In this document: one piece after another, positions 38,687 to 59,596 of the stretch
Layout: every line of letters starts with the position of its first letter
Position numbering within the stretch: the stretch's first letter is position 1
Source of the DNA: an uncultured Methanoregulaceae archaeon
GTDB lineage: Archaea; Halobacteriota; Methanomicrobia; Methanomicrobiales; Methanospirillaceae
Assembly (NCBI GenBank): GCA_963717525.1
Contig: OY970343.1
Span: 64,001 to 128,000, forward strand
Length of the DNA stretch: 64,000 nucleotides
Direction: 5' to 3'
The notes under the pieces: generated by a model
What the model was told of the DNA's origin: nothing
Database searches by the model: none
The model's input: only the letters and a program-made list of their open reading frames with translations
Position numbers and translations under genes: made by a program

Positions 38687-39628
38687 TTATGAGTCCGCAA
38701 TCCCGGCAGCGTAATGGTGCGATCTCTGGTGGACGCTCCCGATAAGCGACTTCTCGAAGCACTCATCCTCGCTGACCGGGCGGGAGATGTACCCGAGGGC
38801 ATGGAGCGTCCGGGCAAATTTCATGGTGGATGCGATATATTCTGGCGGCAGTGCGGCACAGTACTTTGGTGAGATGCGATAGGTGTCCAGGACGAATGCT
38901 GCATCCACCATGCCGGTCGTCTCTGCCACAATCCGGGCACAGGTGGCGGGATCATGGCGGATCCATTCGCAGGCGGCCTCGTGGGCGGTCAGGAACCGGG
39001 TGAGCAGGTCGCGCTTATTGAGCATCTCCCGCATGACGACGATCCCGTAACTCGGGTTGAACGGCCAGAGCTGATCGGGCGGCACTGCGAGCCGGGCGTT
39101 CCCGTACCGACGTGCTGTTGTTGCAAGCGCCGGCGTCCCGGCAGCTGCCGCAATCTCCCCGTTTAACAGGGCATCGGGAAGGAAATCGGCCCAGGGGTAA
39201 TTACGCACCGTGATATCCATTCTTTTGTTTTCCTTAAGCAGATCATTGACGATCACGTCATGAATGGATCCCTTCGGCGGCGTTCCTATGGCCTTGCCGG
39301 ACAGCTGGGAGAGGAACTCCTGCATGCTGCCGCATTCACCGAGGGTCCGGGTGGTCCTGCCTGCGATCATGACCGTGCCCTCGATGTGGCCCCCCGCGAT
39401 GCAGGCGAGCTTCAGCCCCCGGTCTATCCCGATGATGACCGGGGGGAGGCCGATATATCCGAGATCAAGCGTGCTGGCCTGCATGGCGTTGATGATGTCC
39501 GGCCCCGAGGGAAAGAGTGTCCACGTAGCGTGAATATTCTGCTCCTGGAGGAGGCCGGATCCCCGGAGCAGGAAGGCGGTATGGTACAGGGTGGAGAGGT
39601 GGCCGATCCTGATCGTTTCCTGCGCCAT
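38687..39628 (-). CDS. SsuA/TauA/NMT1-fold substrate-binding-like protein lacking a signal peptide
   Basis: FPSGPDIINAM..DLGYIGLPP and GKAIGTPPKGSIHD motifs; begins directly with TIRIG. Confidence 0.8.
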   Translation of the reverse strand: MAQETIRIGHLSTLYHTAFLLRGSGLLQEQNIHATWTLFPSGPDIINAMQASTLDLGYIGLPPVIIGIDRGLKLACIAGGHIEGTVMIAGRTTRTLGECGSMQEFLSQLSGKAIGTPPKGSIHDVIVNDLLKENKRMDITVRNYPWADFLPDALLNGEIAAAAGTPALATTARRYGNARLAVPPDQLWPFNPSYGIVVMREMLNKRDLLTRFLTAHEAACEWIRHDPATCARIVAETTGMVDAAFVLDTYRISPKYCAALPPEYIASTMKFARTLHALGYISRPVSEDECFEKSLIGSVHQRSHHYAAGIADS

Positions 39629-39631
39629 GGT

Positions 39632-40120
39632 TCACCCGACCTTTTTGAGCACTGCAGTGATCGCCTCGTCAACGCAGGAGAGTTCGGGGCGGAGCATCCC
39701 GACCGGCACGTCCACGATCTTCTCTACTATCGAAGCAAGGATCGGGGCGCAGATGATCCCCGACGCCCCGTCCTTCTCCGCCCGGGCAGCCGCAACGATG
39801 CATTCTTCGAGAGAGTGGGCGGAGTAGCCCCTGACGGCAAATTTCTGCCCTCTGGATTCCACTTCCCGGGTTGTAAAGGAGTCGAGCAGGAACTTGGCCG
39901 CGATCACCGCGATGAACCGGTGGCGTTCCGGCTCAAGGACGGCGACGATCTTTTTCACGGTCGAGAGCCGGGGGTCCCGCTCCCCCAGCGTCACCTTGTA
40001 CAGCGTCGAGGCCGGGATACCGGTCTGCTCTGCGAGCTCCTTTACCGTCATGTTCCTGCGCTCCAGTTCCTCGTTTAACGCTGTGGTAAAATCGGTCTCG
40101 AAGATCCTTTTTGAGAACAT
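39632..40120 (-). CDS. XRE/Cro-type HTH transcriptional regulator with C-terminal domain
   Basis: MTVKELAEQTGIPASTLYKV...RDPRLST motif. Confidence 0.85.
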   Translation of the reverse strand: MFSKRIFETDFTTALNEELERRNMTVKELAEQTGIPASTLYKVTLGERDPRLSTVKKIVAVLEPERHRFIAVIAAKFLLDSFTTREVESRGQKFAVRGYSAHSLEECIVAAARAEKDGASGIICAPILASIVEKIVDVPVGMLRPELSCVDEAITAVLKKVG

Positions 40121-40223
40121 ATTATCCTTTAAGTGGTGTTTTAAAGGTTATAATTATTACTATAAGGTTAATTTATTTGCAAAATAGGAAAAATATTTGA
40201 ACCGGCCAACCCATGATCCTGCG

Positions 40224-41036
40224 ATGTACAGCGATCAAACCTACGAACTGACGGTGCTCCCCGGCACTACCCGGGACGGGGAAAAGGAAGGATTTGACCG
40301 GATCGTGATCCGCCCGGGCGACACCCTCTCGATCGTAGGGCCGACCGGCTCGGGGAAATCCGCGTTCATCAACGATATCGAGGTCCTTGCGCAGGAAGAT
40401 ACGGTGACAGGACGCAGCATCCTTGTCAACGGGGAGGAGCCCCTGGAAGACCTCGTGCGCGACCCGGCAAAAAAGCCCATCGCGCTCATCACCCAGAACA
40501 CCCGGGTCATTGCGGATCTTTCCGTTGCCCGGTTCCTCGCGCTTCACCTGCAGGCCCGGGATACCGGTGCCGATTCCCTGATCGCCGGCACCATAGCGCT
40601 TGCAAACGAGTTTACCGGGGAGAAGATTGCCGGGTCCATGCGGATGACCGGGCTCTCGGGCGGCCAGACCCGGTCGCTTCTTATCGCTGATGCGATCCTT
40701 ATCGGCCAGACACCAATCCTGCTCCTCGATGAAGTGGAAAACGCCGGCATCAACAAGGAACGGGTCATTTCCTGCCTGCGGGAATACAAGAAAGCCGTGA
40801 TCTTCGTCACGCACGATCCCTATATCGCGCTCATTTCCGACCGGCGGATCGTGATGAAGAACGGTGCCGTGACCGCCGTTCTCGAACCCGACGGCTCTGA
40901 GTGCGATATTATCGGAACTGTGTCCGGTATGGATGCGTTCCTGTGGGATCTCCGGGAGAAGATCCGCAGTGGGGAGCTGGTCAGCAATCCTGAAAAAACC
41001 CAGGCAGCTCCCAAAAAGACTGGTATTACGGCATGA
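40224..41036 (+). CDS. Stand-alone ABC-type ATPase
   Basis: GPTGSGKS, LSGGQ, LLLDEVEN, VTHD motifs; no permease nearby. Confidence 0.85.
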   Translation: MYSDQTYELTVLPGTTRDGEKEGFDRIVIRPGDTLSIVGPTGSGKSAFINDIEVLAQEDTVTGRSILVNGEEPLEDLVRDPAKKPIALITQNTRVIADLSVARFLALHLQARDTGADSLIAGTIALANEFTGEKIAGSMRMTGLSGGQTRSLLIADAILIGQTPILLLDEVENAGINKERVISCLREYKKAVIFVTHDPYIALISDRRIVMKNGAVTAVLEPDGSECDIIGTVSGMDAFLWDLREKIRSGELVSNPEKTQAAPKKTGITA

Positions 41037-41740
41037 GACTCGTGATTGTCGCCGGCCCGCCAAGCGCCGGCAAAACCGCGGTCATCCGCCAGATCATCAG
41101 GAAATTTGTGAAGACTGACACACCTGCGTACCTTAAGATCGATGTCGTGAAAGCGTTCGAGGACGAGGAACTCCGCGAGGAATTCGGCATTCCCACACGG
41201 AAGGTCTATTCCGGCGACCTCTGCCCCGACCATATGGGCATCATGGTGCTCAGGGACGCGATCACATGGGCAGAGGGGATCGGGGCCGGCATGCTCATTA
41301 TCGAGAGCGCCGGGCTCTGTCTCCGGTGTACACCGTACACGACGCAGGCGTTTGGCATTGCTGTGCTCCCCGCAGTATCCGGCAGCAACGCCCCGCTCAA
41401 AATGGCGCCCCTGATCGCCCTTGCTGATGCGGCGGTCGTCACCAAGACCGACCTTATTTCGCAGGCAGAAAAAGAGGTGTTCCGGGAGTGTATCCGGAGC
41501 GTTGTCCCGAAGATCGACATAATAGAAACCAATGCTGTGCAGGGTACAGGTCTTCGCTACCTGCTCCAGGCCATCAGCAGGTATCCCGGGATCAGCGATT
41601 TGGAGACCATCGCGCTGCGGGGCACGCCGCCGCTTGGGGTCTGCACCATCTGCATCGGTAAAAAAGAGATCGGCTGGCAGCACCATTTTGGCGTGATCCG
41701 GCCTCTCGCGGAGGCTGACAATCTCTACCGGGGAGACTAA
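41033..41740 (+). CDS. HypB/UreG-like (G3E) GTPase
   Basis: GPPSAGKT, LCPDH, ESAGLCLRC, TKTD motifs, C-terminal CTIC. Confidence 0.82.
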   Translation: MRLVIVAGPPSAGKTAVIRQIIRKFVKTDTPAYLKIDVVKAFEDEELREEFGIPTRKVYSGDLCPDHMGIMVLRDAITWAEGIGAGMLIIESAGLCLRCTPYTTQAFGIAVLPAVSGSNAPLKMAPLIALADAAVVTKTDLISQAEKEVFRECIRSVVPKIDIIETNAVQGTGLRYLLQAISRYPGISDLETIALRGTPPLGVCTICIGKKEIGWQHHFGVIRPLAEADNLYRGD

Positions 41741-41745
41741 CCGCC

Positions 41746-42360
41746 ATGGCATGGGATCCCCCCGGCAAGGATTGCGGCTCGTGCGGCCTTCCTGCCTGCA
41801 GTGAGTTTGTAAGGGCAGTAAAAAAAGGTGACAAGGCTGAGACCGACTGCCCGTTTTATACCGTGGAGCAATGCGCTTCATGTGCGCCTGCCCGGTACTC
41901 AGGAACTGACGTGACCGGGGCTAAATATGACTTTATCATCCATGCCTTTCCCGGCGAACCGTCGGCCCGCAAGTTCATCGTGCCGTTCCGGGCTGACCTC
42001 GTGGAGAAGTGGGATATCCGGCCGGGTGCGCTTGTCACCGGCCGCCCCGCCGGGCCCGGGTGCCCGGTTTACCACGCGCTCCGTGTCCTCTCTGCCAACC
42101 CGGTCACCGGGGTGCTCGCGTGCCATACGGTCGGGCCTCTTGTGGCACGCAGGGAAAAGGCGTTTGACGTGCAGGCCTACCATGTCCACGCATTCGAGGG
42201 TATTGCGGAGACTATCCTGCGCCCCCCTACCCTTGGCCTGCGGCAGCGTTTCCTCCCGGGCTACTGCATGATGGATCTGTCCCACACGGCAGTCGTCAAC
42301 ATGGTCTTAAAGAAAAAAGACGGCGTGCATGTGAGAGTAGAGGACATCCGTATCCAGTGA
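41746..42360 (+). CDS. (Fe-S)-binding protein
   Basis: N-terminal PGKDCGSCGLPAC...CP 4Fe-4S module; further GCPVYH and YCMM motifs. Confidence 0.8.
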   Translation: MAWDPPGKDCGSCGLPACSEFVRAVKKGDKAETDCPFYTVEQCASCAPARYSGTDVTGAKYDFIIHAFPGEPSARKFIVPFRADLVEKWDIRPGALVTGRPAGPGCPVYHALRVLSANPVTGVLACHTVGPLVARREKAFDVQAYHVHAFEGIAETILRPPTLGLRQRFLPGYCMMDLSHTAVVNMVLKKKDGVHVRVEDIRIQ

Positions 42361-42367
42361 GCGTTGT

Positions 42368-43643
42368 ATGATTCCGAAATACCGCATCCGGTGTGTCAGT
42401 GGGGGGGAGATTGTTCCCGATATGGCCTCCCTGTCCTGCCCGGCCGGCCATGATTCCCTCCTGCGCACCGAGTATAGCCGCCGCAGGTTACAGCCTGCAC
42501 CTCAGAGCGGGATCTTCCGGTACCTCTGCTGGCTGCCGGTGACCCGCCCGCTGCTGCCCTCAGGAGGCCCGGTGACGTTTACGAGCGCCGCGTTCTCCCG
42601 CGAGCTTGGCCTTCCCCGGTTAGCCATCTCATTTTCCGGGTACTTCCCGGAACAACATGCCTCCCTTACCACCGGTTCATTCAAGGAACTCGAGGCCCTG
42701 CCTACCCTGCAACGGCTCTGGGAACTGGGAAAGAAAATCCCGGTGATCGCCTCTGCGGGAAACACCGGCCGGGCCTTTGCCGGGCTCTCGGCTCAGGTAC
42801 AAAAAGCCGGTGGTGGTAGTGGTGCCAAAGGATGCCGTCTCCCGTCTCTGGACGACCACTCCTGCACATGATGTCTTCCTTGTGGCAGTTAAAGGGGACT
42901 ACACGGATGCAATCGCCGTGAGCACTGCGCTTGCTGCTGTCCCCGGGTGCGTGCCCGAAGGCGGGGCAAGGAACGTTGCACGCCGTGACGGGATGGGCAC
43001 CGTGATGCTCGATGCGGCAGTCACGCTGGGCAGAATACCTGATCACTATTTCCAGGCAGTCGGGAGCGGGACAGGAGCTATTGCCGCATGGGAGGCGGCG
43101 ATCCGGCTCATCGGGGACGGCAGGTACGGCACGGCTCTCCCCCGCCTCCACCTCGCCCAGAACAAACCCTTCACCCCGATGTTCTCAGCATGGCAGCAGC
43201 GTCGCCGGAGTATTAACCCGGAGCTTGATATGCCGGATGCACAAAATGCCATACAGGAAGTCATGTCCCCGGTCCTTACCAACCGCAACCCTCCCTACGG
43301 TATTGCAGGAGGGCTCTTTGACGCCCTGCAGGCAACGGACGGGTGGATGTATGCAGTATCGAACGAGGAGGGAAGGAAGGCGATGCAGCTCATCCGGGAC
43401 ACTGTGGGGATCGATCCCGACCCGGCAGCGGCAGTCGCCACCGCGGCGCTCATGCAGGCAGCAGAAACCGGGGCCGTTGGCCCGGACGATTATATCCTTC
43501 TCAACATCACGGGAGGAGGATACGAGAGGATCCGGGAGGATTATACCCTCTCTCCCGTAGAAGTGTCAGCCACGGTAACTCCTGACGAGCCCCGCGACAG
43601 GATTATTGCAGAACTAAAAAAGTGGGTGGCACACTATGGATGA
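42368..43643 (+). CDS. Cysteate synthase (coenzyme M biosynthesis); apparent frameshift near 42803
   Basis: Threonine-synthase-like: TGSFKELEA, ASAGNTGRAF, EGGARNVARRDGMG, QAVGSGTG motifs; adjacent to comDE. Confidence 0.9.
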
Positions 43644-44751
43644 AGACCAGATCATTGACGAACTCAGAAAACAGGGGATCGATCTTGTCAGCTCGGTTCC
43701 CTGCGACCGGGCAAAGGGCCTCTTTTTCAGGCTGCCCGAAAAATTCCGGCATATCGGCCTTACCCGGGAAGAGGATGGCGTGGGCATATCGGCGGGGGCG
43801 TACCTTGCCGGAGCCCGGCCGGCGATTGCCCTCCAGAGTTCTGGTCTCGGGAACATGCTCAACGCGATCCTCTCCCTCACGGTGACCTTCGGCCTCCCGC
43901 TCCCGATCCTTGCGAGCTGGCGGGGGTGCGAAGGGGAGAAGATCCCGGCCCAGATCCCGTTCAACCGCCCGCTTCCCGCTATCCTTTCCGCAGCCGGCAT
44001 TGCCTGCAGGGAAGTCTCCGGCCCCGATGCGCCACAGGAGATTGGTGAAGCGGTCGCGGCGGCATATAAAAACCGGGCCCCTCAGGTCATCCTTCTACGG
44101 CCGGAGTGCCTTACCGAGACCGGCTGCAGTGCACCATTTCAGCCGGCATCCACCCGGCCGTTTTCCCTTTGCTACGAGAGGAACTGGCGGCCTCCCACGA
44201 TGACCCGGTACGACGCGATACAGGCCATCACGGGAAGTGTGCAGGACGAAGTGCTGGTCGCAAATATCGGCGTTCCCTCAAAGGAGCTCTACACGGCCCG
44301 GGACCGGCCGGAGAACTTCTACATGCTGGGCAGTTACACGCAGGCATCCGCGATCGGCCTTGGCATCGCCACAGCACGGCCGGACAAAAAAGTGATCGTG
44401 ATTGACGGTGACGGGAGCCTGCTTGGCTCTGCGATCCTGCCGGTGATTGCAGCAGCGGGCCCGAAAAACCTCACGATAGCCTGCCTTGACAACGGCGTCT
44501 TTGGCAGCACCGGCAACCAGCCGAGGCCAGGGCAGGATACTGCGGACCTCGCACTCATGGCGCTCGGGGCTGGATTTGTGCATTCCACAACCGTGCATGA
44601 ACCAGGGGAACTCGAAGATGCGCTGGCCTCTCGGAAAAGTGACGGGCCGGCATTCATCCACGCCCGCATCCGCCCCGGAAATAGCGACGTGCCCAATATC
44701 CCCTTGTCCCCGTCACAGATCCGGGAACGGTTCATGGCCGCGCTTCTGTGA
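43636..44751 (+). CDS. comDE: Sulfopyruvate decarboxylase, fused alpha/beta
   Basis: SVPC, TREEDGVG, QSSGLGN, FYMLGS, DGDGS TPP-binding motif. Confidence 0.92.
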   Translation: MDEDQIIDELRKQGIDLVSSVPCDRAKGLFFRLPEKFRHIGLTREEDGVGISAGAYLAGARPAIALQSSGLGNMLNAILSLTVTFGLPLPILASWRGCEGEKIPAQIPFNRPLPAILSAAGIACREVSGPDAPQEIGEAVAAAYKNRAPQVILLRPECLTETGCSAPFQPASTRPFSLCYERNWRPPTMTRYDAIQAITGSVQDEVLVANIGVPSKELYTARDRPENFYMLGSYTQASAIGLGIATARPDKKVIVIDGDGSLLGSAILPVIAAAGPKNLTIACLDNGVFGSTGNQPRPGQDTADLALMALGAGFVHSTTVHEPGELEDALASRKSDGPAFIHARIRPGNSDVPNIPLSPSQIRERFMAALL

Positions 44752-44828: not shown

Positions 44829-45692
44829 TCAGAGCAGGGGATCAGGAAGTTCCGTGCCGTAGACCGGAAGTTTTGATCCTGATACGAGCACCGGCCGGTC
44901 TGACCGGGCGATCTTGTCGAGGATGAGCTGCCTGCCCCGTTTTGTGAGCGCAAAGACCGGGACCGCTGTGCCTGCCTGCAGGAGCGCCCGGGCCCCCGCG
45001 ATCTGCCAGATCCATTTCGAAGCGCAGGCTGTCACGATATCTGCTACCCCGACAATCTGTTCGGCATCTGCCTCGGTAATGCCACTCATATGCACTCCGA
45101 AGATGAATGTTTCCGGGAACTGATCCCGGATTGCGGTTGCCGTTTCCGCGGAGGCAACCGTCACCGCGACACGGGAAAATCCCTTCTTGTACGCCCGGGC
45201 GACGCCGAGCACCGGGTCGACCGTTGCATGTGCCCGGTCGAGGACAAACCCTCCCTCCTTCTCGATCCTGTCCATCTCCTCTTTGATCGGCGAGGTGCTC
45301 ACGAGTCCGGACATCCTGCCGCCGATCCCCTGGACCATTTCCGGGGTAGTCACAATCACGGTTCCCGCACCGTCGCTGGCGAGGACTGCGGCATCAAGGG
45401 TCCCGGAAAGGATACCGGAACTGATCAGTTCAGACGCGCCAAATCCCACAAAATCCACAGTGCTGCTGATCTTCCGGTGCGGCCGGCACATGCCCCACGA
45501 ATGTATCCGGTGCTCAATGTTTGCCTTGACCGCTTCCGGGGTGATCTCGTTCACCGGCAGGGCAAATTTTTTTGCAAGCGGGCACTGGCGAAGCCGGGAG
45601 ACCGAGACTTCGGCTACGTTCCCGTTTTTTATGATGATCTTCGAACGTCCCACCGCTTCTATTACGTGAATGTCTTCCTCATTTTCGGACAT
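44829..45692 (-). CDS. Methanogenesis marker 8 protein (DUF2099)
   Basis: HVIEAVG, CPL, FVGFGASE, DGAGTV, QGIGGRMSGLV, TACASK motifs. Confidence 0.88.
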   Translation of the reverse strand: MSENEEDIHVIEAVGRSKIIIKNGNVAEVSVSRLRQCPLAKKFALPVNEITPEAVKANIEHRIHSWGMCRPHRKISSTVDFVGFGASELISSGILSGTLDAAVLASDGAGTVIVTTPEMVQGIGGRMSGLVSTSPIKEEMDRIEKEGGFVLDRAHATVDPVLGVARAYKKGFSRVAVTVASAETATAIRDQFPETFIFGVHMSGITEADAEQIVGVADIVTACASKWIWQIAGARALLQAGTAVPVFALTKRGRQLILDKIARSDRPVLVSGSKLPVYGTELPDPLL

Positions 45693-45852
45693 GGAATATT
45701 CCTCTTTTCTCCTTTGTCATATACGGAAAATCAACCCATCCTTTTCTTCCGGGAGAGGTGCCGCAGATATCATGTTCAGAACAAAGCCATGCTTGCTTAG
45801 GTGTGCTATGAAAACCGGGGAATAATAACCTCATGTACTCTGGCAATCATCG

Positions 45853-46761
45853 TTACAGCGCGAGCATCCGTTCTATCGCATCACGGGCACGGACTGCAGT
45901 CTCTTTCGGAACCGTGATCCTGGGCCTGAGCGTGACCAGTGCGTCGCGGACGTGTGCAAGGGTGGTCTTCTTCATGTTCACGCAGACGGCCTTCTCCGAG
46001 AGCGGGTAACAGTGCTTTCCCGGGCACTCTTTTGCAAGCCGGTGCAGGATGCCGATCTCGGTACCTATGATAAACTCGGTTCCGGGTGCAGCTTTGACGT
46101 GGCTGACGATCCCCGATGTGCTCGCGACGTGATCCGCACGGTCGATGACTTCAGGCCGGCACTCCGGATGGACGAGGACAACGGCGCCCGGGTGCACCTG
46201 TTTTGCCCGGGCAACATCGTCCGGGGTGTAGCGGTCGTGGACCAGGCAGAAGCCTTCCCACGGTAACACCGTCTTTTTGGTGAAGCGCGCCACGTACTGC
46301 CCGAGGTTTTTATCCGGGACAAAGATCACCTCATCCTCCGAAACTGCGTTGACTACCTTAACTGCGTTTGCCGAGGTACAGCAGATGTCGCTCTCCGCTT
46401 TGACGTCGGCAGTCGTGTTCACGTAGCAGACGACTGCTGCGCCCGGGTGACGGGTGCGGGCGAACCGGAGCTCGTCTGCGGTCACCATCCCTGCCATGGG
46501 GCAGCAGGCATCGATCGCGGGCAGCAGGACCGTTTTTTCCGGGGCAAGAATGGCGGCGGTTTCCGCCATGAAATCGACCCCGCAGAAGACGATAACATTG
46601 CCGGCCATCGCCGCCGCAGCACGGGCCAGCTCCAGCGAATCGCCGGTGATATCAGCGATGTCCTGCACCTCGGGCCGCTGGTAGTTGTGCGCAAGGATGA
46701 TCGCGTTTCTCTTCTTCTTAAGGTGCAGGATCTCATCCTGCAGCATACTTGCGTCCTGCAT
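45853..46761 (-). CDS. nadA: Quinolinate synthase
   Basis: LAHNYQ, GDSL, CGVDFMAE, YVNT, CLVH, HPEC, CVNMK motifs. Confidence 0.95.
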   Translation of the reverse strand: MQDASMLQDEILHLKKKRNAIILAHNYQRPEVQDIADITGDSLELARAAAAMAGNVIVFCGVDFMAETAAILAPEKTVLLPAIDACCPMAGMVTADELRFARTRHPGAAVVCYVNTTADVKAESDICCTSANAVKVVNAVSEDEVIFVPDKNLGQYVARFTKKTVLPWEGFCLVHDRYTPDDVARAKQVHPGAVVLVHPECRPEVIDRADHVASTSGIVSHVKAAPGTEFIIGTEIGILHRLAKECPGKHCYPLSEKAVCVNMKKTTLAHVRDALVTLRPRITVPKETAVRARDAIERMLAL

Positions 46762-46883
46762 CGGCAAACCCACGTGTGTTTGTATCGTAGTAGTGTGTCG
46801 CGGTGCATCAAAAAGTCGCTGGCGGGGCCCTTGCCGTACCGGGATGTTTATGCACCGGGGATTCCTATCTTCTATCGACGACC

Positions 46884-47078
46884 ATGAAAGTAATCCTGCC
46901 GGATCAGGGCATCCGGGTGATGGAGCACGGCCCCGGAACGGTCGCGGCGCTCCTGCACGAGCTCGGTATCAACACTCTGGAAGTGATGGTGGCCCGTAAC
47001 GGCACCCTTGTCCCCGAGCAGGCAGCAATCGGCGGGGATGACGAGATCAGGGTCATCCGGATCGCGCACGGGGGATAG
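46884..47078 (+). CDS. ThiS/MoaD/SAMP ubiquitin-like sulfur carrier
   Basis: 64 aa, VARNG motif, ends in RIAHGG. Confidence 0.88.
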   Translation: MKVILPDQGIRVMEHGPGTVAALLHELGINTLEVMVARNGTLVPEQAAIGGDDEIRVIRIAHGG

Positions 47079-47082
47079 GCCG

Positions 47083-48018
47083 GTGAAGCACCCTGCTGCG
47101 CCCGTTGATGTCCCGGCCTGTTCCTGCTGCGGGGAACCGGCGGTCATATACCAGCCGGTAAGCCGGCGCCATCTCTGCGGCATTCACCTTGTACGTGATG
47201 TGGAAAAGCGGGTTGCATCGACCATAAATGAGGCCGGGCAGATCCATGCGGGCGACCGGATCGCAGTGGCATTAAGCGGGGGAAAGGACAGGTACAGCGC
47301 TCCTTGTCATCCTTTCCCGGCTCCTGCCCGCGTGGCCGGGCGCGGATCTCGTTGCCATCACTGTGGATGAGGGGATTGCCGGGTACCGCACTGACACCAT
47401 ACGGGCAGCAGAGGCCCTGACAGGACGGCTTGGGGTGGACCACCGCATCGTCTCCTTCCGTGACCTTGTCGGCGCCGACCTCGATACCCTGCTTGCGGGA
47501 CGCGAGACAGAGGCCTGCACCATCTGCGGCATCCTGCGCAAAAAAGCACTCACGGATGCAGCCCGTACAGCCGGGGCGACCGCGATCGCCACCGGCCACA
47601 ACCTCGATGACGAGGCCCAGTCAGTGCTGATGAACGCTTTCCGGGGGATCTTCCCCGGCTCGTCAGGAACACCGGTACCGGCCGGTCGGCCCTGTTCCTC
47701 CCGAGGATCAAACCCCTTGCTGCTGTAACGGAGAAGGAGATCGCGGCCTATCTTTTTGTGCAGGGTCTTTTTTCCGTGCTGCCAGAATGCCCGTACACGA
47801 GATACGCACTGCGTGCCGAAGTACGGAGCCTGCTTGCAGGATTGGAGGACCGGCATCCCGGGACGATGCAGCATCTCGCGGACAACAAAAAAAGTATCGA
47901 ACGGTACTGTGCGGGGACACCGGTCATGGAATCCCTGCACCACTGCCGGGAGTGCGGCGACCCCTGCTCCGGCGAAATCTGCCAGGTCTGCCGGCTCCGG
48001 CACTCACTGGGAAAGTGA
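47083..48018 (+). CDS. TtuA/NcsA-type tRNA 2-thiolation protein; two apparent frameshifts (~47291, ~47645)
   Basis: N-terminal Zn finger, SGGKD(S) PP-loop, CTICG, TGHNLDDEAQ, CPY, C-terminal CRECG...CQVC. Confidence 0.85.
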
Positions 48019-48783
48019 AGGGGCGCCCTGTACCCGTTCAGGGTGAGTGTAGATAATCATCTTCGCGCTGCGGACAAACCCGACAATGCATACCCCGGTC
48101 TGCTCTGCGATGGTGACGGCAAGGGTCGTCGTCGCACCGCGTGATATCATCACCGGGATGTTTGCGATCAGGCACTTGCGCACCATCTCGGATGATACGC
48201 GGCCGGAGCAGATGGCAAACGTCTTTGAGAGATCGATCTTATTTTTCAGGCCGTACCCGATCACGCGGTCAAGCGCGTTATGCCTCCCGATATCCTCGGA
48301 ACGGGTGATGATACCGTCTTTTGATGCGAGCCCGACGACGTGGATACCACCGGTGATAGTGTGCAGTTCGGATTCGAGCACTTCCCTGGTGGTTGCACTG
48401 AGCAGGTCAGGAGTGACAGACAGGTCCGAGGTGATTCTGGGAAGTTTTTCGGTGTCGATAAAGGATGCAGCCCCCCCGCACCCGGAGAGGATCGTCTTTT
48501 TCGGGCCAAGCACCTTGAAGAGATTTTTGGTGATCACGCTGATCCGGTTTTTCTCGATCCTGATGGACTCGATCTCGTCGGCGCTTTTGATGATTTGTTC
48601 GGTAAACAGGTAGCCGGTGACAAAATCCTCAAGTCCGGTCGGGCTCATCATTGCGGTCATCGCATGCCTGCCGTTCACGAACAATGCCTCAGGAACCTCT
48701 TCGATGACCTCATGGGTACCGGTTTTTGCGGTCTGGCCTTCCATTTTTATGCAGGGCAGGTTCTTGAACATCGGTACCGTCAT
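48004..48783 (-). CDS. fdhD: FdhD sulfurtransferase family protein
   Basis: SGCG, TGGIH, EDIGRHNALD, SGRVSSEMV motifs. Confidence 0.92.
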   Translation of the reverse strand: MTVPMFKNLPCIKMEGQTAKTGTHEVIEEVPEALFVNGRHAMTAMMSPTGLEDFVTGYLFTEQIIKSADEIESIRIEKNRISVITKNLFKVLGPKKTILSGCGGAASFIDTEKLPRITSDLSVTPDLLSATTREVLESELHTITGGIHVVGLASKDGIITRSEDIGRHNALDRVIGYGLKNKIDLSKTFAICSGRVSSEMVRKCLIANIPVMISRGATTTLAVTIAEQTGVCIVGFVRSAKMIIYTHPERVQGAPSLSQ

Positions 48784-48806
48784 AAATGTCACCAGGCAGG
48801 GAGCGA

Positions 48807-49625
48807 TCAGGATCTTTTGCGGGCAGGTGGGAGCACTTCGTCCATGCTCCCTGTCCGGTACCCCTCCAGATCGAGGGTTACATAGGAGAACCCGAGTGCA
48901 CGAAGGGCACCTGTCACCGCAGCATGCATATCCAGTAATGCGTGCATCTCCTCTTTAGGCACTTCGATGCGGGCAACCTTCCCGTGGACCCTGACACGCG
49001 CCTGCACGAACCCTTTTCCGTGCAGGAATGCCTCGGCCCCCTCGACCATGTGGAGTTTTTCCCGGGTTATCGGATCGCCGTAGGGGATGCGGGAGGAGAG
49101 GCAGGCCGCCGATGGTTTGTCCCAGAAAGACAATCCCTCGTCCCGTGCAATCTCCCGGATATCGTTTTTGGTGAGGCCGGCATCGAGAAACGGATGAATA
49201 ATTCCCTCTTCAGTACTTGCGGCAAGGCCGGGCCGGTGTTCCCCGGTATCCGAGACGTTGATGCCATCTGCAACACAGGCAAAACCCAGTTCCTGTGCCC
49301 GCCGTTTGAGCACAGCAGCAGAGTTCTTTTTGCACCAGTAACAGCGTTTAGCGGGGTTCTTTGCGAACCGATCATCATCCATCATACTGACGGGAAGGAT
49401 CTCCAGCTCAAGGTTATACTTCCGGGCAATGAGCCGCGCCTCATCGATCGCTTCCCGCGGGACGACCGGGCTGTCGAGAAGGACGCACCGGGTCCTGTCC
49501 CCGAGTGCTTCCCGGGCAAGCACCGCGAGCAGGCTGCTGTCCACGCCGCCGGAGAAAGCAACGAGCAGGGATCCGTGCCCAGCGAGTGAATCGAGCAGGA
49601 GTTTTCGGCGGGCAGGGATTTCCAT
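48807..49625 (-). CDS. larE: LarE-family ATP-dependent sulfur transferase (PP-loop)
   Basis: AFSGGVDS, RCYWCK, RPG, ACLSSRIPYG, GYRTGSM motifs. Confidence 0.9.
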   Translation of the reverse strand: MEIPARRKLLLDSLAGHGSLLVAFSGGVDSSLLAVLAREALGDRTRCVLLDSPVVPREAIDEARLIARKYNLELEILPVSMMDDDRFAKNPAKRCYWCKKNSAAVLKRRAQELGFACVADGINVSDTGEHRPGLAASTEEGIIHPFLDAGLTKNDIREIARDEGLSFWDKPSAACLSSRIPYGDPITREKLHMVEGAEAFLHGKGFVQARVRVHGKVARIEVPKEEMHALLDMHAAVTGALRALGFSYVTLDLEGYRTGSMDEVLPPARKRS

Positions 49626-50045
49626 GGTGTGCACACGACCTTTTTAGAGACGCATCATTATCTGCGTGTTTTTATGAATGATTTTCGGGAGATACTCATT
49701 GAGATTACCGTGATCCGTTCCCGGTTCAGGACCCTCCGGGCTGTCGCCGGTAATTTTGTTTTCAAGCAGAAAGAAGTTTTGTTGATATATCATTGCATCA
49801 ATTATCATTTCAAACGGTGTTTATTTATACAATCCTGGTTCCGGCGATGGATTTCATCAGAGCATATACGGGTAAACCGCCGGAAAATGTCCCGGAATAC
49901 AGCCGGCCGCGAGCAGGGATCTACCCGTTGGCTGCGGTAATAAGGTATGCCGGAAAGAGATCAACAGAAAGCCGGCATACATGATAACCTTGAGCGTTAG
50001 AAATATTAACAATTGTGAACATACAGGTACTGTGGTTAACCATGA

Positions 50046-50330
50046 GTGATCGTCTTTGCTGTAACCAGCAGTAACGAAAAACGTGTACAGAATATTGGGC
50101 ACCTGCCGCCATCGGCAAAACTGGTGTATACCGTCCTCAGGGCCAACAGCCCGATGACTCAGAAAGATATTGTCCGGGAATCCTATCTTCCCGAACGTAC
50201 TGTCCGTTACGCGCTCTCCCGTCTCAGGGAGGAGAAGGTTCTGATCGTACATCTCTCCCTTGCCGATGCACGGCAGAGCCTGTACCGGCTTTCGGTGCGG
50301 GAAAACGAACCGGCTGCCATGGCGGCCTGA
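50046..50330 (+). CDS. Small winged-HTH transcriptional regulator (start uncertain)
   Basis: LPPSAKLVY..L....PMTQKDI.....LPERTVRYAL..L...DARQSLY motif. Confidence 0.82.
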   Translation: MIVFAVTSSNEKRVQNIGHLPPSAKLVYTVLRANSPMTQKDIVRESYLPERTVRYALSRLREEKVLIVHLSLADARQSLYRLSVRENEPAAMAA

Positions 50331-50562
50331 ATCGTCCCTTTTTCACTTTTCGCCGGTTCACGAAGGAATCCATTGTTGCAGGAATGCCGCCGGAAACGAT
50401 ATTCTTCCTCTTCGCGGAGTCAGGACCCGGCTCCTGAACAAAAATTACTGTGGGGAATATATTTTGCGCGCGAAATGCGTTCTCTGCATACAATTAAGTG
50501 CCAGAGTACCTGACATTTCCCTCGGAAACCAGGATCGGGAAAATCCTGCCGATGTCAGAACA

Positions 50563-50614
50563 TATAAATATTCACGATTGTTATCTTGTATAGTCAAAAT
50601 CACAATCGTGAATA
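50563..50614 (+). promoter_or_regulatory. TATA box plus a 13-bp inverted repeat upstream of tRNA-Cys/pscS
   Basis: TATAAATA at 50563-50570; TATTCACGATTGT (50569-50581) and ACAATCGTGAATA (50602-50614) are exact reverse complements. Confidence 0.65.
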
Positions 50615-50624
50615 CGCACAACAA

Positions 50625-50696
50625 GCCAGTGTGGCGGAGTGGTTACGCGGTTGACTGCAGATCAACTACACCCCGGTTCAATTCCGGGCGCTGGCT
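50625..50696 (+). tRNA. tRNA-Cys (GCA)
   Basis: Acceptor GCCAGTG/CGCTGGC, anticodon arm GTTGA-CTGCAGA-TCAAC, T arm CCCGG-TTCAATT-CCGGG, U73; CCA not encoded. Confidence 0.96.
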
Positions 50697-50721
50697 CTGC
50701 ACATAAAAAAGGTGACACACC

Positions 50722-52086
50722 ATGAGTATCCGAATCCAGAAAACATTCGAAGCACTCTTTGCTTTCGAAGAGATCCGCGGGCTCTTCCGCGAGTCCCTGC
50801 CAACCGGCTTTGACCCTGCGGAGGAGGCAGCGTTCCTGCAGAAGATTGCTGAAGTAAAGGCAATCCTTGCCGATCTCGAGGCAGGCACCGGCTCACCGAA
50901 GGTCACAAAGATTGCCGGCTCTATCGACCTGCGGACCCGGGAAGAGGAGTCCATCAACATCCAGCCGATCCAGGCAGCAGGCCGGCTGACCACGGAGGCG
51001 AGGAAGGCCCTCATCTCCTACGGTGACGGTTACTCGACGTGTGACGCCTGCCGGAAGCCGTTCCGGCTGGACAAGATCTCCCAGCCGGGCATAGCGGAGT
51101 TCCATGCTGACCTTGCGAAGTTCGTCAACATGGACCAGGCCCGGGTCGTTCCCGGTGCACGCCGGGGGTTCCAGGCAGTTGCAGGCACGCTCGTGAACAA
51201 GGGGGACAGTGTGGTAGTCTCGGCGCTCGCCCACTATACCGAGTTCCTGGCCGTGGAAAATGCCGGTGGGGTCGTAAAGGAAGTGCCGCTCGACGACAAA
51301 AATATCGTGACTGGCGAGGCAACGGCACAGAAGATCGAAGAGGTCAAACGGGAGACCGGAAAACTCTCGGTGCTCGTCATGATCGACCACTTCGACTACC
51401 AGTTTGCAAACGAGCACGAAATCAGCGAAATCGGAAAAGTCGCCCACCAGTACGACATCCCCTTCCTCTACAACGGGGCATACACGGTCGGCGTCCGGCC
51501 GGTCGACGGCAAGAAGATCGGGGCAGACTTTGTCGTCGGCTCCGGACACAAGAGTATGGCATCGGTCGCGCCGTCCGGGGTACTTGCAATGACCGATGAA
51601 TGGGTGCCAAAGGCACTCCGCACCACCGCGATGGTCGGCGACCTCACCAAACGGAAGTTTGGCATCAAGGAAGTGGAAATGCTCGGCTGCACGCTGATGG
51701 GAGGGACCCTGCTCTCGATGATGGCATCGTTCCCCGCAGTAAAGGAACGGGTGCTCCACTGGGATGAACAGGTGAAGCGCTCCAACTACTTCATCGACCG
51801 GCTCCTGAAAATTGAGGGGAGCAGGGTGCTCTCCGAGTACCCGCGTAAGCACACGCTCACCAAAGTCGACACCACGGGAAGCTTTGACACGGTCGCACAG
51901 ACCCACAAGCGCCGCGGCTTCTACTTCAGCGACGAGCTGTCGTCCCGCGGGATTGTCGGCGAATTTGCCGGGGCAACCCGGACCTGGAAACTGAACACCT
52001 ACGGCCTGTCCGAAAAGCAGATCCGCTACCTTGCCGAGGCCTTTACCGGGATCGCAGAGAAATACGGGATCCCTGTTGCGCCGTAA
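50722..52086 (+). CDS. pscS: Sep-tRNA:Cys-tRNA synthase with N-terminal extension
   Basis: PIQAAGRLT, DGYSTCDAC, GARRG, HYT, GSGHKSMAS, EMLGCT motifs; ~60 aa extra helical N-terminus. Confidence 0.93.
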   Translation: MSIRIQKTFEALFAFEEIRGLFRESLPTGFDPAEEAAFLQKIAEVKAILADLEAGTGSPKVTKIAGSIDLRTREEESINIQPIQAAGRLTTEARKALISYGDGYSTCDACRKPFRLDKISQPGIAEFHADLAKFVNMDQARVVPGARRGFQAVAGTLVNKGDSVVVSALAHYTEFLAVENAGGVVKEVPLDDKNIVTGEATAQKIEEVKRETGKLSVLVMIDHFDYQFANEHEISEIGKVAHQYDIPFLYNGAYTVGVRPVDGKKIGADFVVGSGHKSMASVAPSGVLAMTDEWVPKALRTTAMVGDLTKRKFGIKEVEMLGCTLMGGTLLSMMASFPAVKERVLHWDEQVKRSNYFIDRLLKIEGSRVLSEYPRKHTLTKVDTTGSFDTVAQTHKRRGFYFSDELSSRGIVGEFAGATRTWKLNTYGLSEKQIRYLAEAFTGIAEKYGIPVAP

Positions 52087-52226
52087 CGCCGGTTACCCGG
52101 TGTAATTATGCAATCCAGCGGATTTCTCAACGTAAAATGAAACCGATATTTCAGGTATCCCCGCAGGAATCAACCCGTTATATGAAATCCAGAGAAGCAA
52201 CAAGCAAAGAAAAAAATCCTGTATAA

Positions 52227-53543
<1,317 letters not shown>

Positions 53544-53546
53544 GAT

Positions 53547-55028
53547 ATGAGTATGCTCCGTGGTTCGCTCGGTATTGTCACAACCGGATACGCAGACCTC
53601 CCCGGCCCCTTCACGTTAGAGAGCGGGGCAGTCCTGCCTAAGGTGACCATCGCCTACGAGACCTACGGCAGGCTCAATAAAGAGAAGAGCAATGCGATCC
53701 TCATCTGCCACGCCCTCTCGGGCGACGCCCACATAGCCGGGTTCCACGAAGGAGAAGAGAAACCCGGGTGGTGGGACGCGGTGGTCGGGCCGGGTAAGGC
53801 CTTTGACACCGAGCGCTATTTTGTCATCTGCAGCAACGTGATCGGGGGGTGCAAGGGCTCGACCGGCCCTTCATCCATAAACCCCGACACCCTAAAACCC
53901 TACGGCGCAACCTTCCCGGTGGTGACCATCCGCGATATGGTCAACGCCCAGAAAGGTCTTATCGATGTTCTTGGCATTCCCGAACTCTACGCGGTTGCCG
54001 GCGGATCGATGGGCGGCATGCAGGCGCTCCAGTGGACCGTCTCGTACCCGGACCTGGTAAAAAAGGCGATCATCATAGCCGCGACCGGGTACTCGACGCC
54101 CCAGCAGATCGCGTTCAATGAGGTCGGCAGGAAGGCGATCATCTCGGATCCCGACTGGAACAAAGGAGACTATTACGGGAAGGAGATCCCCTCCCACGGC
54201 CTCGCGCTGGCCCGGATGGTCGGCCACATCACGTACCTCTCCGATGAGTCGATGCATACGAAGTTCGGGAGGGCCCTCCAGGGAAAAGACCGGGTCGGAT
54301 TTGATTTCTCCACCGAGTTTGCCATCGAGAGCTACCTCCACCACCAGGGGGATACGTTCACGAAAAGGTTCGATGCGAACTCGTACCTCTACATCACCAA
54401 GGCCATCGATTACTTCGACCTCACCCGGGAGGGATCCCTTACCACCGGCCTTGCGGCGGCAAAGGCAGCGTTCTTTGTTATCTCCGTTACCTCGGACTGG
54501 CTCTACCCGCCCTACCAATCGCAGGAGATCGTGACGGCGCTTACCGCAAACGAGCGCGAGGTGCACTACTGCGAGATCCGGTCCAATTACGGCCACGACG
54601 CATTCCTGCTCGAATCCGGCCAGATCAATTACCTGATCACGAGGTTCCTCTCCCATACAGTCGTTGGCGACGTGATGATCCGCGACGTCGAGTGTATCGA
54701 GGAGGGGACGACGATTGCGGTCACCGCCCGGCGGATGATCAAGTGCAGTGTCAACCACCTGCCGGTCCTTTCCGCTAGCGGCCAGCTCGTGGGGATCGTA
54801 ACGTCCTGGGACATTGCAAAGGCAGTTGCGTCCAACTTCCTGTGGCTCGACGAGATCATGAGCCGCAGCGTGGTCACGACCACCGAGAACGAGCCCGTGG
54901 ACGAGGCTGCCCGGAAGATGGAGGCGCACTCGATCTCCGCGCTGCCGGTCATCGATCCCGAATCGCACGTAATCGGGCTTATCACGAGCGATGCCATCAG
55001 CATGCTCGTCGGCAGGCAGAACCCGTGA
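53547..55028 (+). CDS. metX: Homoserine O-acetyltransferase with C-terminal CBS pair
   Basis: CHALSG, GGSMGG, DWLYP, GHDAFL motifs; CBS domains in the last ~120 aa. Confidence 0.93.
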
Positions 55029-55079
55029 TCTTCACCACACACTAACAACAAGACTGAAATCGATTATTGGACAGGGGAA

Positions 55080-56198
55080 ATGGACATGACAAAGAAATGG
55101 CTGGTCAGGTATTCCGAGATCTTCTTAAAATCGGACCCGGTGCGCCGGCAGTGGGAACGCGTCCTGATCAATAACATCAGGCAGCAGATGCCGGACACAA
55201 AGATCAAGAGCGAGCGGGGCCGGATCTGGCTCACCGGTGAGGTTGACCCCACAAAACTCCGGCATGTCTTCGGGATCGTATCATTTTCCGAGGTCGAACA
55301 CGTGCCCCGTGACGTACCGCTGGAATCGGCGGTGGTGGAATACGGCAGGACCCACGGCCTGCCTGCCGCAAAGACGTTTGCGCTCAAAATAAAACGAGTG
55401 GGCAGGCACAGTTTCTCCTCGAACGACAAGGCAATAGAGCTTGGTGACGTGGTCAGGAAGGCCTTCCCGCACCTCAAAGTGAACCTCGCCACTCCCGATG
55501 TGGAGATCCATGTCGAGATCCGGCAGGACGAGTGCTACCTGTACGATACCGTGATCAAGGGGGCAGGAGGTCTCCCGCTCGGCGTGGAAGGGACACTTGT
55601 GGCCCTTGTCTCGGGAGGGATCGATTCGCCCGTTGCGGCGTACATGATGATGAAGCGGGGCTGCAAAATTGTCCCGATCTTTGTCGCGCTCGACACCTTC
55701 CTTGACGAGACCGTGCTTGCCCGGGCCGAGCGGGTCGTAGAAGTGCTCCGGCAGTACCAGCCCGATATCCAGCTCCGGGTGATCCACGATTCCTACCTTG
55801 CCGCAGCAAAAAAGGAGCTGATCCGGAACCGGCAGGAGAAGTATACCTGTCTCTTCTGCAAGCGCCGGATGTACCGGATTGCCCAGGCCATCGCACTGGA
55901 AGTCGGGGCAAAGGGCATCGTGAACGGCGAATCGCTCGGGCAGGTGGCCAGCCAGACCCTCGATAATCTTGTTGTCCTCTCCGATGCGGCGGAGATCCCG
56001 GTCTACCGCCCCCTCATCGGGTTTGACAAGGCGGATGCGATTGTACTTGCCCGCGAGATCGGGACCTACGAGGAGTCCACCAGTAAGGCAACGGGCTGCA
56101 TGGCGGTGCCCACGGGACCGTCCACGAAGGCCCAGCTCGCGGAGATCCAGGAGATGGAGCGGCATATGGATTCGACGAAGATGCCACTGCCGGTGTGA
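55080..56198 (+). CDS. thiI: tRNA 4-thiouridine sulfurtransferase (no rhodanese domain)
   Basis: RYSEIFLKS, THUMP domain, SGGIDSPVA, CLFCKR, GESLGQVASQT motifs, distal Cys. Confidence 0.92.
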   Translation: MDMTKKWLVRYSEIFLKSDPVRRQWERVLINNIRQQMPDTKIKSERGRIWLTGEVDPTKLRHVFGIVSFSEVEHVPRDVPLESAVVEYGRTHGLPAAKTFALKIKRVGRHSFSSNDKAIELGDVVRKAFPHLKVNLATPDVEIHVEIRQDECYLYDTVIKGAGGLPLGVEGTLVALVSGGIDSPVAAYMMMKRGCKIVPIFVALDTFLDETVLARAERVVEVLRQYQPDIQLRVIHDSYLAAAKKELIRNRQEKYTCLFCKRRMYRIAQAIALEVGAKGIVNGESLGQVASQTLDNLVVLSDAAEIPVYRPLIGFDKADAIVLAREIGTYEESTSKATGCMAVPTGPSTKAQLAEIQEMERHMDSTKMPLPV

Positions 56199-56413: not shown

Positions 56414-57346
56414 TTAATTTCCCAGACGATAATGGCTGTTTGTGATAGGCGTTAAGATATCCATCACTGACTCGAATTCCAATTCAGAGCCGATGCAGAT
56501 TACCTGCTCACCCTGTAGGGTATCCTTGAGGAAGTCTATGAGAGAAGTTCTGTGCAAAATATCGAGATGGGAAAATGGACTGTCCAGGATGAGCGGCAGC
56601 TGACATTTTGTAGATTTTCTTAATCCAGCCAGAAGAGACAGCCAAAGAACAATCCGGTCTCCTGTCGACAACGTGGGCAAACAATCGTAATTATCGCGTT
56701 TCAAATGAAAGATCCCATTCTCATCAAATTCAATCGAAAAGTCAGAATCTGTATATTTTCTCTTGAGGGCGGTCCATACCGCTCCTGAAACAATCTCAAT
56801 TATTTTCTCGTTAGAGATTTTTGAAATTTTCGATCCAAACGTGACTATATTTTCTATCAGGTTTGTTGGGTTCTGCTCTCCATTCCAAAGATAGAGGAGA
56901 TCTGATTCACGGGGAAGTTCATAGTCACCATCAACCCACAGGGATTTTCGCAATTCTTTAACCGCGCGCACGTCGGAAAAAAGTGAAATATCTTCATTTA
57001 ACCATGAATATTCGCACGTTCTCTCAATCTTCAGCCTTACGTCGGAATTTGCTTCAGAGAGGAACACCTGAACCGAAACTTCGACTTTTTGATGATTCTT
57101 CAACGATTTTAACAACTGATGGTTTATGAGAGATGGATCCTGTGTCGAGATATCCTGATTACCCTGACTAAAAGCCCACCGCAATGCATCCACGATAGTA
57201 GTTTTACCTGAACCACACGGCCCTTCTATGATATTAACAAATTTTTCAGGAGAATGCCCAAGAACAATCTCGTTTTTTCCGAGGAACGACCTAAAATTGT
57301 TTATAACAATCTCATCAATTATCAGGGATGGGCATGTTAAATCCAT
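56414..57346 (-). CDS. Short SMC/Rad50/DndD-like ABC ATPase
   Basis: NNFRSF, GPCGSGKTT, LSTGD signature, PLILDSPFSHLD..HR; AT-rich. Confidence 0.75.
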   Translation of the reverse strand: MDLTCPSLIIDEIVINNFRSFLGKNEIVLGHSPEKFVNIIEGPCGSGKTTIVDALRWAFSQGNQDISTQDPSLINHQLLKSLKNHQKVEVSVQVFLSEANSDVRLKIERTCEYSWLNEDISLFSDVRAVKELRKSLWVDGDYELPRESDLLYLWNGEQNPTNLIENIVTFGSKISKISNEKIIEIVSGAVWTALKRKYTDSDFSIEFDENGIFHLKRDNYDCLPTLSTGDRIVLWLSLLAGLRKSTKCQLPLILDSPFSHLDILHRTSLIDFLKDTLQGEQVICIGSELEFESVMDILTPITNSHYRLGN

Positions 57347-57501
57347 AATTTCTACTCTCCGAACGTCTAACGTTTTTCCGAATTTGGCGTTTCGATTAAT
57401 ATCTTTTATGGTACAGCCGGTCCGGCGATCCGGCCCCGGATTTCAGCCGGAATCTCCCGGTGAATTTCTCCGACGTATATCCGGGAAGTGTTGAAAAATG
57501 T

Positions 57502-57526
57502 GTCCTCTAGGATTATCCTAGAGGAC
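57502..57526. repeat. Perfect 12-bp inverted repeat with 1-nt spacer
   Basis: GTCCTCTAGGAT-T-ATCCTAGAGGAC. Confidence 0.85.
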
Positions 57527-57776
57527 TTCTTTTAATTCCTATTAAAGGAATAACGTAAAATCTAAAATTTTAGAGAGATCTCTGCCTAGAGAATCGCTGG
57601 AAAATCGAACCGGAAACCGGGCGGGACATTGAGCCCCTCAACTTATCAAATCCTATCGCTCGGATCCAGTTTGCGGCCTGTATTTTTCCCGCGGTTTAGG
57701 ATGTATGGAACTTTTCAAAAATGAGAGATGAACTGAGGCTGATACTCCACTGCCTGTCATGAAATCCGCGGCATTA

Positions 57777-59003: not shown

Positions 59004-59596
59004 CGTGCACTCGTTCCGGAATATCCGGTTAGTTGTGGGGGTTCAAAGGATATGGATTCTGACTTTTATGTCCGCACCGGATCTTCTAACAGTACCGATA
59101 TGGATACAACCAGAATTGACCAAAAACACTTGTCATGAATCAATAAATAATTGGCTTTGTAGAAGACCTTCCTTCTCCGAAGTAAACAACTGACCTCAAA
59201 AAGTTAAGGTACGGTGTATCCCTACCTTTTATGCAAATAAAAGGAAATATCGTGTTATTCAGTTCTGGAACCAATACAATTTACATCTGAAAATTATTGA
59301 TAATAATTAATCTTACTTCAGATGGGGAACTCGAAGAAGAATGGGATTGAGGAAGCCTAGATATATGATGGGTAGGCGAGAATACGCTTGAATAAGTAAT
59401 GTGATACTTACAGGGATAATATCCGGTTTTTCCTGTTACGGGTATTAAGTTTTTCAATCAGAAGTCGAATTTTGGATAAATTTCCTGCATTTTGACCCCT
59501 TGCAGAGGTATGCTTTACATTAATATTATTAAAATAGAGAGTAACATTTATCGGTATATATACTGAATCATTTCACACTTAATTGCTGAGGAAATT

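Follow-up and report, generated by a model that had tools for sequence, protein, structure and literature searches.

A candidate sulfite-supplying ATPase-GTPase-Fe-S module encoded with cysteate synthase in a Methanoregula-like archaeon

Where do methanogens obtain the sulfite with which coenzyme M (CoM) synthesis begins? Both archaeal CoM routes start with the addition of sulfite, and most methanogens live on sulfide, without sulfate reduction. No published sulfite source for methanogen CoM synthesis was found in the open-access literature. The question is raised by an operon in a stretch of 64,000 nucleotides (the window; assembly GCA_963717525.1, contig OY970343.1, positions 64,001 to 128,000) from an uncultured Methanoregulaceae archaeon. 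Here, three genes, for a soluble ATPase, a GTPase and an Fe-S protein (together, the trio), precede those for cysteate synthase (CS) and sulfopyruvate decarboxylase (ComDE). The reading that we favour, with a probability of about 0.45, is that the trio is a nucleotide-driven sulfur-mobilising module, which at this locus feeds sulfite to CS. A candidate of only three genes makes the methanogen sulfite source a testable question. The operon is composed as follows.

40224..41036, + strand: soluble ABC-type ATPase, 270 aa (PF00005, E 4e-13)
41033..41740, + strand: G3E-class GTPase, 235 aa (PF02492)
41746..42360, + strand: 'COG2000' Fe-S protein, 204 aa (PF04060)
42368..43643, + strand: CS, sulfite-using (TIGR03844, halves 1-140 and 139-398)
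43636..44751, + strand: fused sulfopyruvate decarboxylase ComDE (TIGR03845 and TIGR03846, both above cut-off)

The genes are co-directional. Their successive junctions are a 4-nt overlap, a 5-nt gap, a 7-nt gap and an 8-nt overlap, in agreement with the initial annotation of this DNA, which had described five genes overlapping or less than 10 bp apart. The identities it assigned were likewise confirmed (ABC_tran, cobW, PF04060 Fe-S, TIGR03844 CS and fused comD+comE). The named homologs nearest to the operon proteins belong to Methanoregula; the five-gene operon is real, and its host is a Methanoregula-like methanogen. The count of five holds for the operon and not for the window as assembled, in which CS is broken into open reading frames of 167 and 288 aa by one surplus base at 42796. 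This base was missing in all four close relatives that aligned there (six were tried). At full depth, three runs that may be the source samples of this genome (X1, X3 and X7) also lack it in their Logan contigs; X11 gave no cover. Hence, the CS gene is intact, and a pseudogene was rejected in favour of an assembly error.

The methanogen profile covered Methanomicrobiales, Methanosarcina and other Halobacteriota families. Among 121 Methanomicrobiales genomes, a close GTPase homolog was found in 71, CS in 72 and both in 68, and MMP16 (ComF, the CoM synthase discussed below) was above cut-off in 68. All three of trio, CS and MMP16 were missing in 44. Wherever GTPase and CS occurred together (68/68), they lay within 3.5 kb of each other, so that the linkage of trio and CS is not a matter of chance. 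In a deep separate clade from other Halobacteriota families (39-41% identity), the order CS-ATPase-GTPase-FeS was observed in six of six loci, and in four of these comD-comE follow, that is, the trio sits between CS and comD. In two loci the trio stands with CS only.

In the genus of this archaeon, MMP16/ComF was found in none of ten genomes, and trio-CS-comDE is retained in six of them. In another genus, MMP16 has been relocated away from trio-CS in four genomes. The trio stays with CS-comDE where MMP16, the only Fe-S enzyme of the pathway, is gone, which favours a role in supplying CS. The own-genus genomes that hold CS and comDE without MMP16 would be natural CoM makers in which the last step runs via L-ASST or abiotic chemistry. 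In the present genome, the single match to TIGR03287 (the MMP16/ComF family, COG1900d) is an L-ASST-type gene that scores under the cut-off.

The trio was also followed in bacterial classes in which ComA, the other sulfite-using synthase, occurs. In 151 Desulfotomaculia genomes, ComA was present in 133, aprA, of adenosine phosphosulfate (APS) reductase, in 96 and the trio GTPase in 23, and aprA and the trio did not overlap in a single genome. All 23 trio genomes carry ComA, and none has aprA above cut-off (Fisher p 2e-12, a value inflated by kinship). Sat was also absent from all 23, and CysD/CysH-family genes from the three tested. On a quick ComA tree (118 rows, i.e., 114 of the 133 ComA genomes plus four outgroups), the trio label needs nine changes, four of them forced by strong branches. 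In G231 and G292, which are sister genomes, the trio stands directly behind comA, with a DUF441 gene on its other side; the aprA-positive G201 has the same comA-DUF441 locus, and the trio is absent from it. In three further Desulfotomaculia genomes comA is within 8 kb of the trio. In the class of Heliobacterium, the trio was found in 7 of 112 genomes, with ComA in six of six tested and dissimilatory aprA in none of five tested. Genomes in which sulfate respiration would provide both sulfite and sulfide- or sulfane-level sulfur are without the trio.

Three loci have the trio followed by glutamate-synthase-like, CoatF, thiamine pyrophosphate-enzyme, oxidoreductase, major facilitator and comA genes, possibly a sporulation sulfonate cluster. 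The comA cluster of B. subtilis includes its own sulfate-reduction genes.

The trio is not CoM-specific, and it is widespread in bacteria. A genome scan was evaluated for the best 80 of at least 599 relatives, and about half of those 80 were non-methanogens. Two entries, labelled Faecalibacterium and Nanohalarchaeota, were apparently mis-binned and were excluded from the bacterial evidence. Among 37 loci of clade II (Omnitrophota, Planctomycetes, Chloroflexi, Acidobacteria and others), 23 have a NifS gene within the trio operon or next to it and 16 have an Rrf2 gene; CysK, MetY or MetX is close by in some. Overall, the neighbours include CysK, MetY, CysE, ThiF, ThiI, LarE and TauE. Sulfur enzymes adjoin the trio in four clades, the linkage amounting to 24/37 loci in clade II and 8/22 in Bacillota. 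CS and ComA accept sulfite; CysK, MetY, MMP16, ThiI and LarE accept sulfur at the sulfide or sulfane level, and NifS yields persulfide. The common thread among these neighbours is sulfur insertion. It had been stated at the outset that a trio found mostly in organisms without CoM and unlinked to sulfur genes would speak against the proposal. The first half of this is what was observed, the trio being widespread in organisms without CoM; the second is not, as sulfur genes mostly accompany it there too. The proposal is supported insofar as it sees in the trio a soluble module that is driven by nucleotides and connected with sulfur metabolism. The narrower statement that the trio occurs almost only with a sulfonate synthase was rejected, because CS and ComA are both missing in 27 of 30 clade II genomes.

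The co-location of the trio with CoM genes is already published, and its function is uncharacterised. Genes for an ATPase, a Ni2+-binding GTPase and a COG2000 Fe-S protein are reported to lie often beside CoM genes, with role unknown (Chadwick et al. 2025, PMC12068725, Fig. 2B legend). Compared with that description, the gene types and the CoM link are the same, whereas the present locus is without MMP16. The parts of that paper considered here propose no function for the trio and are silent on its bacterial form with NifS and Rrf2, on the viral copies described below, on the link to comA (here in two genomes) and on the aprA exclusion, the last two of which are added by the present analysis; in the main text, as far as it was available, the word 'sulfite' does not appear. 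No functional study of the trio was found in the open-access literature. The initial annotation had offered a second possibility, that the trio serves the step from sulfoacetaldehyde to CoM. This step is now assigned to MMP16/ComF, which genetic evidence establishes as the principal CoM synthase, with L-ASST as the likely backup (PMC12068725, in the portions cited). No trio protein matches TIGR03287, and the trio is retained where MMP16 is lost (0/10 genomes of its own genus) or has moved (the four genomes mentioned above); this part of the proposal is superseded and finds no support.

What kind of chemistry do the three proteins allow? In the ATPase, Walker A (GPTGSGKS), the Q-loop, the LSGGQ signature, LLLDE and the H-loop (VTHD) were all found, i.e., all nucleotide-binding motifs are intact, and the motif residues do not vary in 66 homologs. 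No ABC permease for it was found in the window, nor any recurring permease family near the trio in 82 mapped loci (a remote permease is possible). The GTPase has a P-loop (GPPSAGKT), an ExxG Walker B (ESAG) and an (N/T)KxD motif (TKTD); with PF02492 (cobW) above cut-off and a G3E fold, it is a G3E (SIMIBI) GTPase. The motifs CPDH (64-67), CLRC (96-99) and CTIC (204-207), pointed out in the initial annotation, are present, and C64, H67, C96, C99, C204, C207 and H218 vary in none of 68 aligned homologs. Its predicted fold resembles UreG (Z 21.9, rmsd 2.3, 186 aligned) and HypB (Z 20.3), with the same P-loop, ExxG, TKxD and Cys/His switch motif. Two further CxxC pairs, both invariant, and an extended C-terminus set it apart from these proteins, as does its partnership with an ABC ATPase and an Fe-S protein. 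In a sister family, GTPase and ATPase are joined in one chain (two proteins), which suggests that the two act together.

The Fe-S protein matches PF04060 with 37.4 bits (cut-off 23) and contains the CxxCxxxxC...C motif. Its N-terminal four-Cys domain is of the CFeSP/RnfB type and matches both, and the four Cys are present in 65 of 66 rows, the sole exception being a viral copy. The C-terminal domain is beta-rich and modelled with confidence (pLDDT of the whole AF2 model, 91.8), and C106, H110, C174, H180, R75, R100, R166 and R197 are invariant in 66 of 66 rows; these two cysteines, two histidines and four arginines would gather in one site. No structural match was obtained for this domain beyond a best Z of 3.8, and Foldseek returned none at E<=0.001. 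A weak resemblance to elongation-factor barrels (Z 2.8-3.1) was observed, and an Atlas search retrieved only clusters of its own family, under 0.8. No longer, fused form was seen among 7999 candidates, which is weak evidence. The Fe-S protein is predicted to be the catalytic unit. No FAD, siroheme, PAPS-reductase or nucleotidyl-transferase domain was matched in the three proteins with Pfam or NCBIfam.

In the reading that we favour, the trio would be one soluble ATP/GTP-driven machine that turns reduced or persulfide sulfur into an activated inorganic sulfur not obtainable from sulfate. G3E GTPases load or gate the metal centres of partner enzymes. CS, ComA and ComDE are not known to have an Fe-S or Ni cofactor. 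Since none of the three needs a metal cluster, their maturation by the trio is unlikely, and the client of the GTPase is more likely the Fe-S protein of the trio itself. The GTPase would load or gate the metal centre of this protein, the C-terminal Cys2His2 site with its four arginines would hold a sulfur species or an oxyanion, and the N-terminal [4Fe-4S] domain would carry electrons, the uphill step being powered by the ABC ATPase. As estimated from redox potentials, about 140-190 kJ/mol must be invested to take sulfide to sulfite when F420 or ferredoxin accepts the electrons, a cost that would account for the two NTPases. The sulfur input would be NifS persulfide in bacteria and sulfide in methanogens. 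The output would be sulfite for CS or ComA, and possibly sulfide or sulfane sulfur for CysK, MetY, MMP16 and ThiI, as would be expected from a sulfane-sulfur disproportionation or a thiosulfate cleavage. Of the possibilities raised by the initial annotation, the putative sulfite supply fits the phylogenetic profile best.

Such a module would occupy the metabolic slot of Sat/CysDN plus APS reductase, and in the Desulfotomaculia sample the trio and aprA exclude each other; unlike that system, it lacks flavin, siroheme and nucleotidyl-transferase domains, and would start from reduced sulfur. In its boldest form, the proposal would be a novel type of enzyme system, an ATP/GTP-driven, oxygen-independent sulfite generator with a new metal fold that replaces APS reductase and was captured by likely methanogen viruses; it would oxidise or disproportionate sulfur at the sulfide or persulfide level for CoM in methanogens and for spore sulfolactate in syntrophic Bacillota. 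We consider this form less likely than not. Four trio carriers in the class of Heliobacterium have CysD(N), i.e., assimilatory sulfate genes, which weakens a strict replacement of APS reductase, and in one of the genomes, G121, an APS reductase of the assimilatory type is present in addition, as is a sulfite reductase.

A number of other observations also weigh against sulfite supply. In a test by independent pairs, of which there were four to five and hence little power, the mutual exclusion of aprA and trio does not reach significance, and the aprA threshold of 1e-100 would miss assimilatory AprA. With ComA in 133 of the 151 Desulfotomaculia genomes, its co-occurrence with the trio is by itself of little weight. 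In 15 Desulfotomaculia, ComA is present and both aprA and the trio are absent; 14 of these 15 also lack Sat (completeness of these genomes being unassessed). In clade II, CS and ComA are both missing from the 27 genomes mentioned, and Sat occurs in 14 of 26 genomes. In Methanosarcina, the Fe-S gene is present in 28 of 59 genomes and missing in 31. All five trio-negative Methanosarcina tested have CS, with distant GTPase matches or none, so that some methanogens can probably do without the trio in making CoM. Where present in this genus, it adjoins a second MMP16, a radical S-adenosylmethionine (SAM) gene and often ThiI, and not CS. Five paralogous copies of the trio are unlinked to CoM genes; of two further paralogous copies, one lies at a contig end and one is broken. 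A single [4Fe-4S] domain, moreover, is thin equipment for an oxidation of four to six electrons.

The Methanosarcina arrangement, (radical SAM)-trio-second MMP16-(ThiI), was seen in about half of the genus (seven loci). The M. acetivorans 'GTP-binding protein' MA4556 was considered as a trio member and dropped, as its neighbours form a RuBisCO and cobalamin-dependent methyltransferase locus (judged by neighbours, not sequence); MA4556 is induced about 10-fold under CoM starvation (PMC12068725, S4 Table). Siroheme sulfite-reductase genes were considered as a distinguishing feature; they were found in 15 of 15 methanogen genomes checked and do not separate trio-positive from trio-negative ones, and in clade II they are missing in 7 of 10 Sat-positive genomes. 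Second trios, with Fe-S proteins of 276-297 aa and no linkage to CoM genes, were found at four Methanoregulaceae loci, three of them near PKD-domain genes.

On balance, a sulfur-converting, sulfite-supplying module was preferred to three other explanations. The main competitor, unlikely though closest, is that the trio is an accessory system for Fe-S assembly or repair, NifS-fed, with a SufC-like ATPase, a P-loop carrier and a Cys/His scaffold; its clients would be MMP16, radical SAM enzymes and ThiI, and the adjacency to CS would reflect operon history. The clade II order Rrf2-ATPase-GTPase-NifS-FeS recalls Rrf2-iscS-iscU, and the permease-less ABC ATPase is reminiscent of SUF/SMS (SufBC), as NifS and Rrf2 are of ISC/MIS (Rrf2-IscS-IscU). 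NifU adjoins the trio in one locus, and radical SAM genes lie beside it in Methanosarcina, with MMP16 and ThiI; on three bacterial-looking metagenome contigs the trio is flanked by B12-dependent radical SAM genes. Unlike those systems, however, the trio includes a G3E GTPase and occurs with sulfonate synthases, and no SufB or IscU likeness was found in it, either by Pfam or among the fold matches (families outside that listing are possible). It is retained in operons free of cluster enzymes (CS-comDE in Methanoregula, comA in G231 and G292, CS only in two loci), a NifU/SufU-family gene is already present in five of five NifS-type trio genomes, and the absence of the trio from all 96 aprA genomes is left unexplained.

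Distinctly less probable is a relay that would pass sulfane or persulfide sulfur, or reductant, to MMP16, L-ASST, ThiI, MetY and CysK and make no sulfite. The presence of MMP16 within 7.5 kb of the trio in 32 of 55 clade Ia loci and the neighbours CysK, MetY, ThiI and LarE agree with it. The sulfur donor of MMP16 is described as unclear, and the L-ASST of the present genome is a possible stand-in for MMP16 (PMC12068725, in the portions cited). With these COG1900 sulfurtransferases the trio shares the pathway neighbourhood and would share an Fe-S-dependent sulfur chemistry; no trio protein, however, belongs to COG1900, the trio remains with CS in the ten genomes in which MMP16 is lost or moved, and it stands directly behind comA in two. 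A plain Ni/Co/Zn metallochaperone of the HypB/UreG type, its client elsewhere and the sulfur link secondary, is very unlikely: the G3E fold, the CPDH motif and a sister family in which DUF364 'heavy-metal chelation' genes and genes for solute-binding proteins accompany GTPase and ATPase would suit it, but the GTPase scores far under the HypB and UreG equivalog cut-offs (TIGR00073, 54.9 vs 121.2; TIGR00101, 22.9 vs 204.2), no hydrogenase or urease gene occurs among the annotated subset of trio neighbours, and those neighbours are sulfur enzymes in the four clades.

If it supplies sulfite, the trio could aid CoM synthesis in other hosts, and it could be a methanogen-specific target. Even under the competing explanations, this ATPase-GTPase-Fe-S module, which is conserved, occurs in many phyla and some viruses and includes a domain without structural match, represents uncharacterised anaerobic sulfur biology.

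Viral copies were found on three related tailed-virus contigs from IMG/VR, in which the ATPase and GTPase genes lie directly behind the major capsid gene (L034:4104-5515, L035:4261-5591, L036:4264-6133). L036, which reaches farthest, also has the Fe-S gene, minus the N-terminal [4Fe-4S] domain. The viral GTPases cluster with Methanoregula-like copies (branch support 90). The sister module consists of a GTPase (35-39% identity), an ABC ATPase with an N-terminal helical extension and a DUF364 or solute-binding protein, and its ten loci have no COG2000 gene. The sister GTPase was present in 8 of the 15 ComA-positive Desulfotomaculia without aprA and trio, vs 9 of the 96 aprA genomes.

Upstream of the operon, the following features were observed.

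38687..39628, - strand: NMT1/SsuA-like ligand-binding protein (PF09084; TIGR01728 under cut-off)
39632..40120, - strand: divergent XRE-type HTH regulator (PF01381)
40121..40223, unstranded: AT-rich divergent promoter region, between the HTH regulator and ATPase genes

The HTH regulator is retained 5' of the trio in many Methanomicrobiales loci, as seen on gene maps. The SsuA-like gene accompanies the trio in Methanoregula and also, in a different order, in two genomes; inspected by eye, its product shows no obvious signal peptide, and no permease goes with it. In the promoter region, the block TTATAATT.TTACTA is kept across Methanoregula loci and likely represents back-to-back TATA boxes. An inverted repeat 5' of the operon (CCTTTAA-N8-TTAAAGG) was considered as an operator and rejected, as it is not conserved in 17 related loci.

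Downstream, a wider sulfur neighbourhood (window 44829-56198) contains methanogenesis marker 8, nadA, SAMP/ThiS, ncsA, fdhD, larE, SepCysS, metY, metX and thiI. The SepCysS gene (50722-52086) is one of two paralogs in the genome (56% identical), which also has two ThiI paralogs. The ncsA/ttuA gene (47008-48018) is in three pieces owing to indels at 47291 and 47642; these are absent from short-read contigs and are assembly errors. CysK, CysE, NifS and ThiF are located about 50 kb beyond this neighbourhood in the genome. A further stretch of the window (56414-62107) is of low GC and holds an SMC-like ATPase, an HSP90-like ATPase and, as judged by eye, a ThiC-like gene and an integrase-core transposase.

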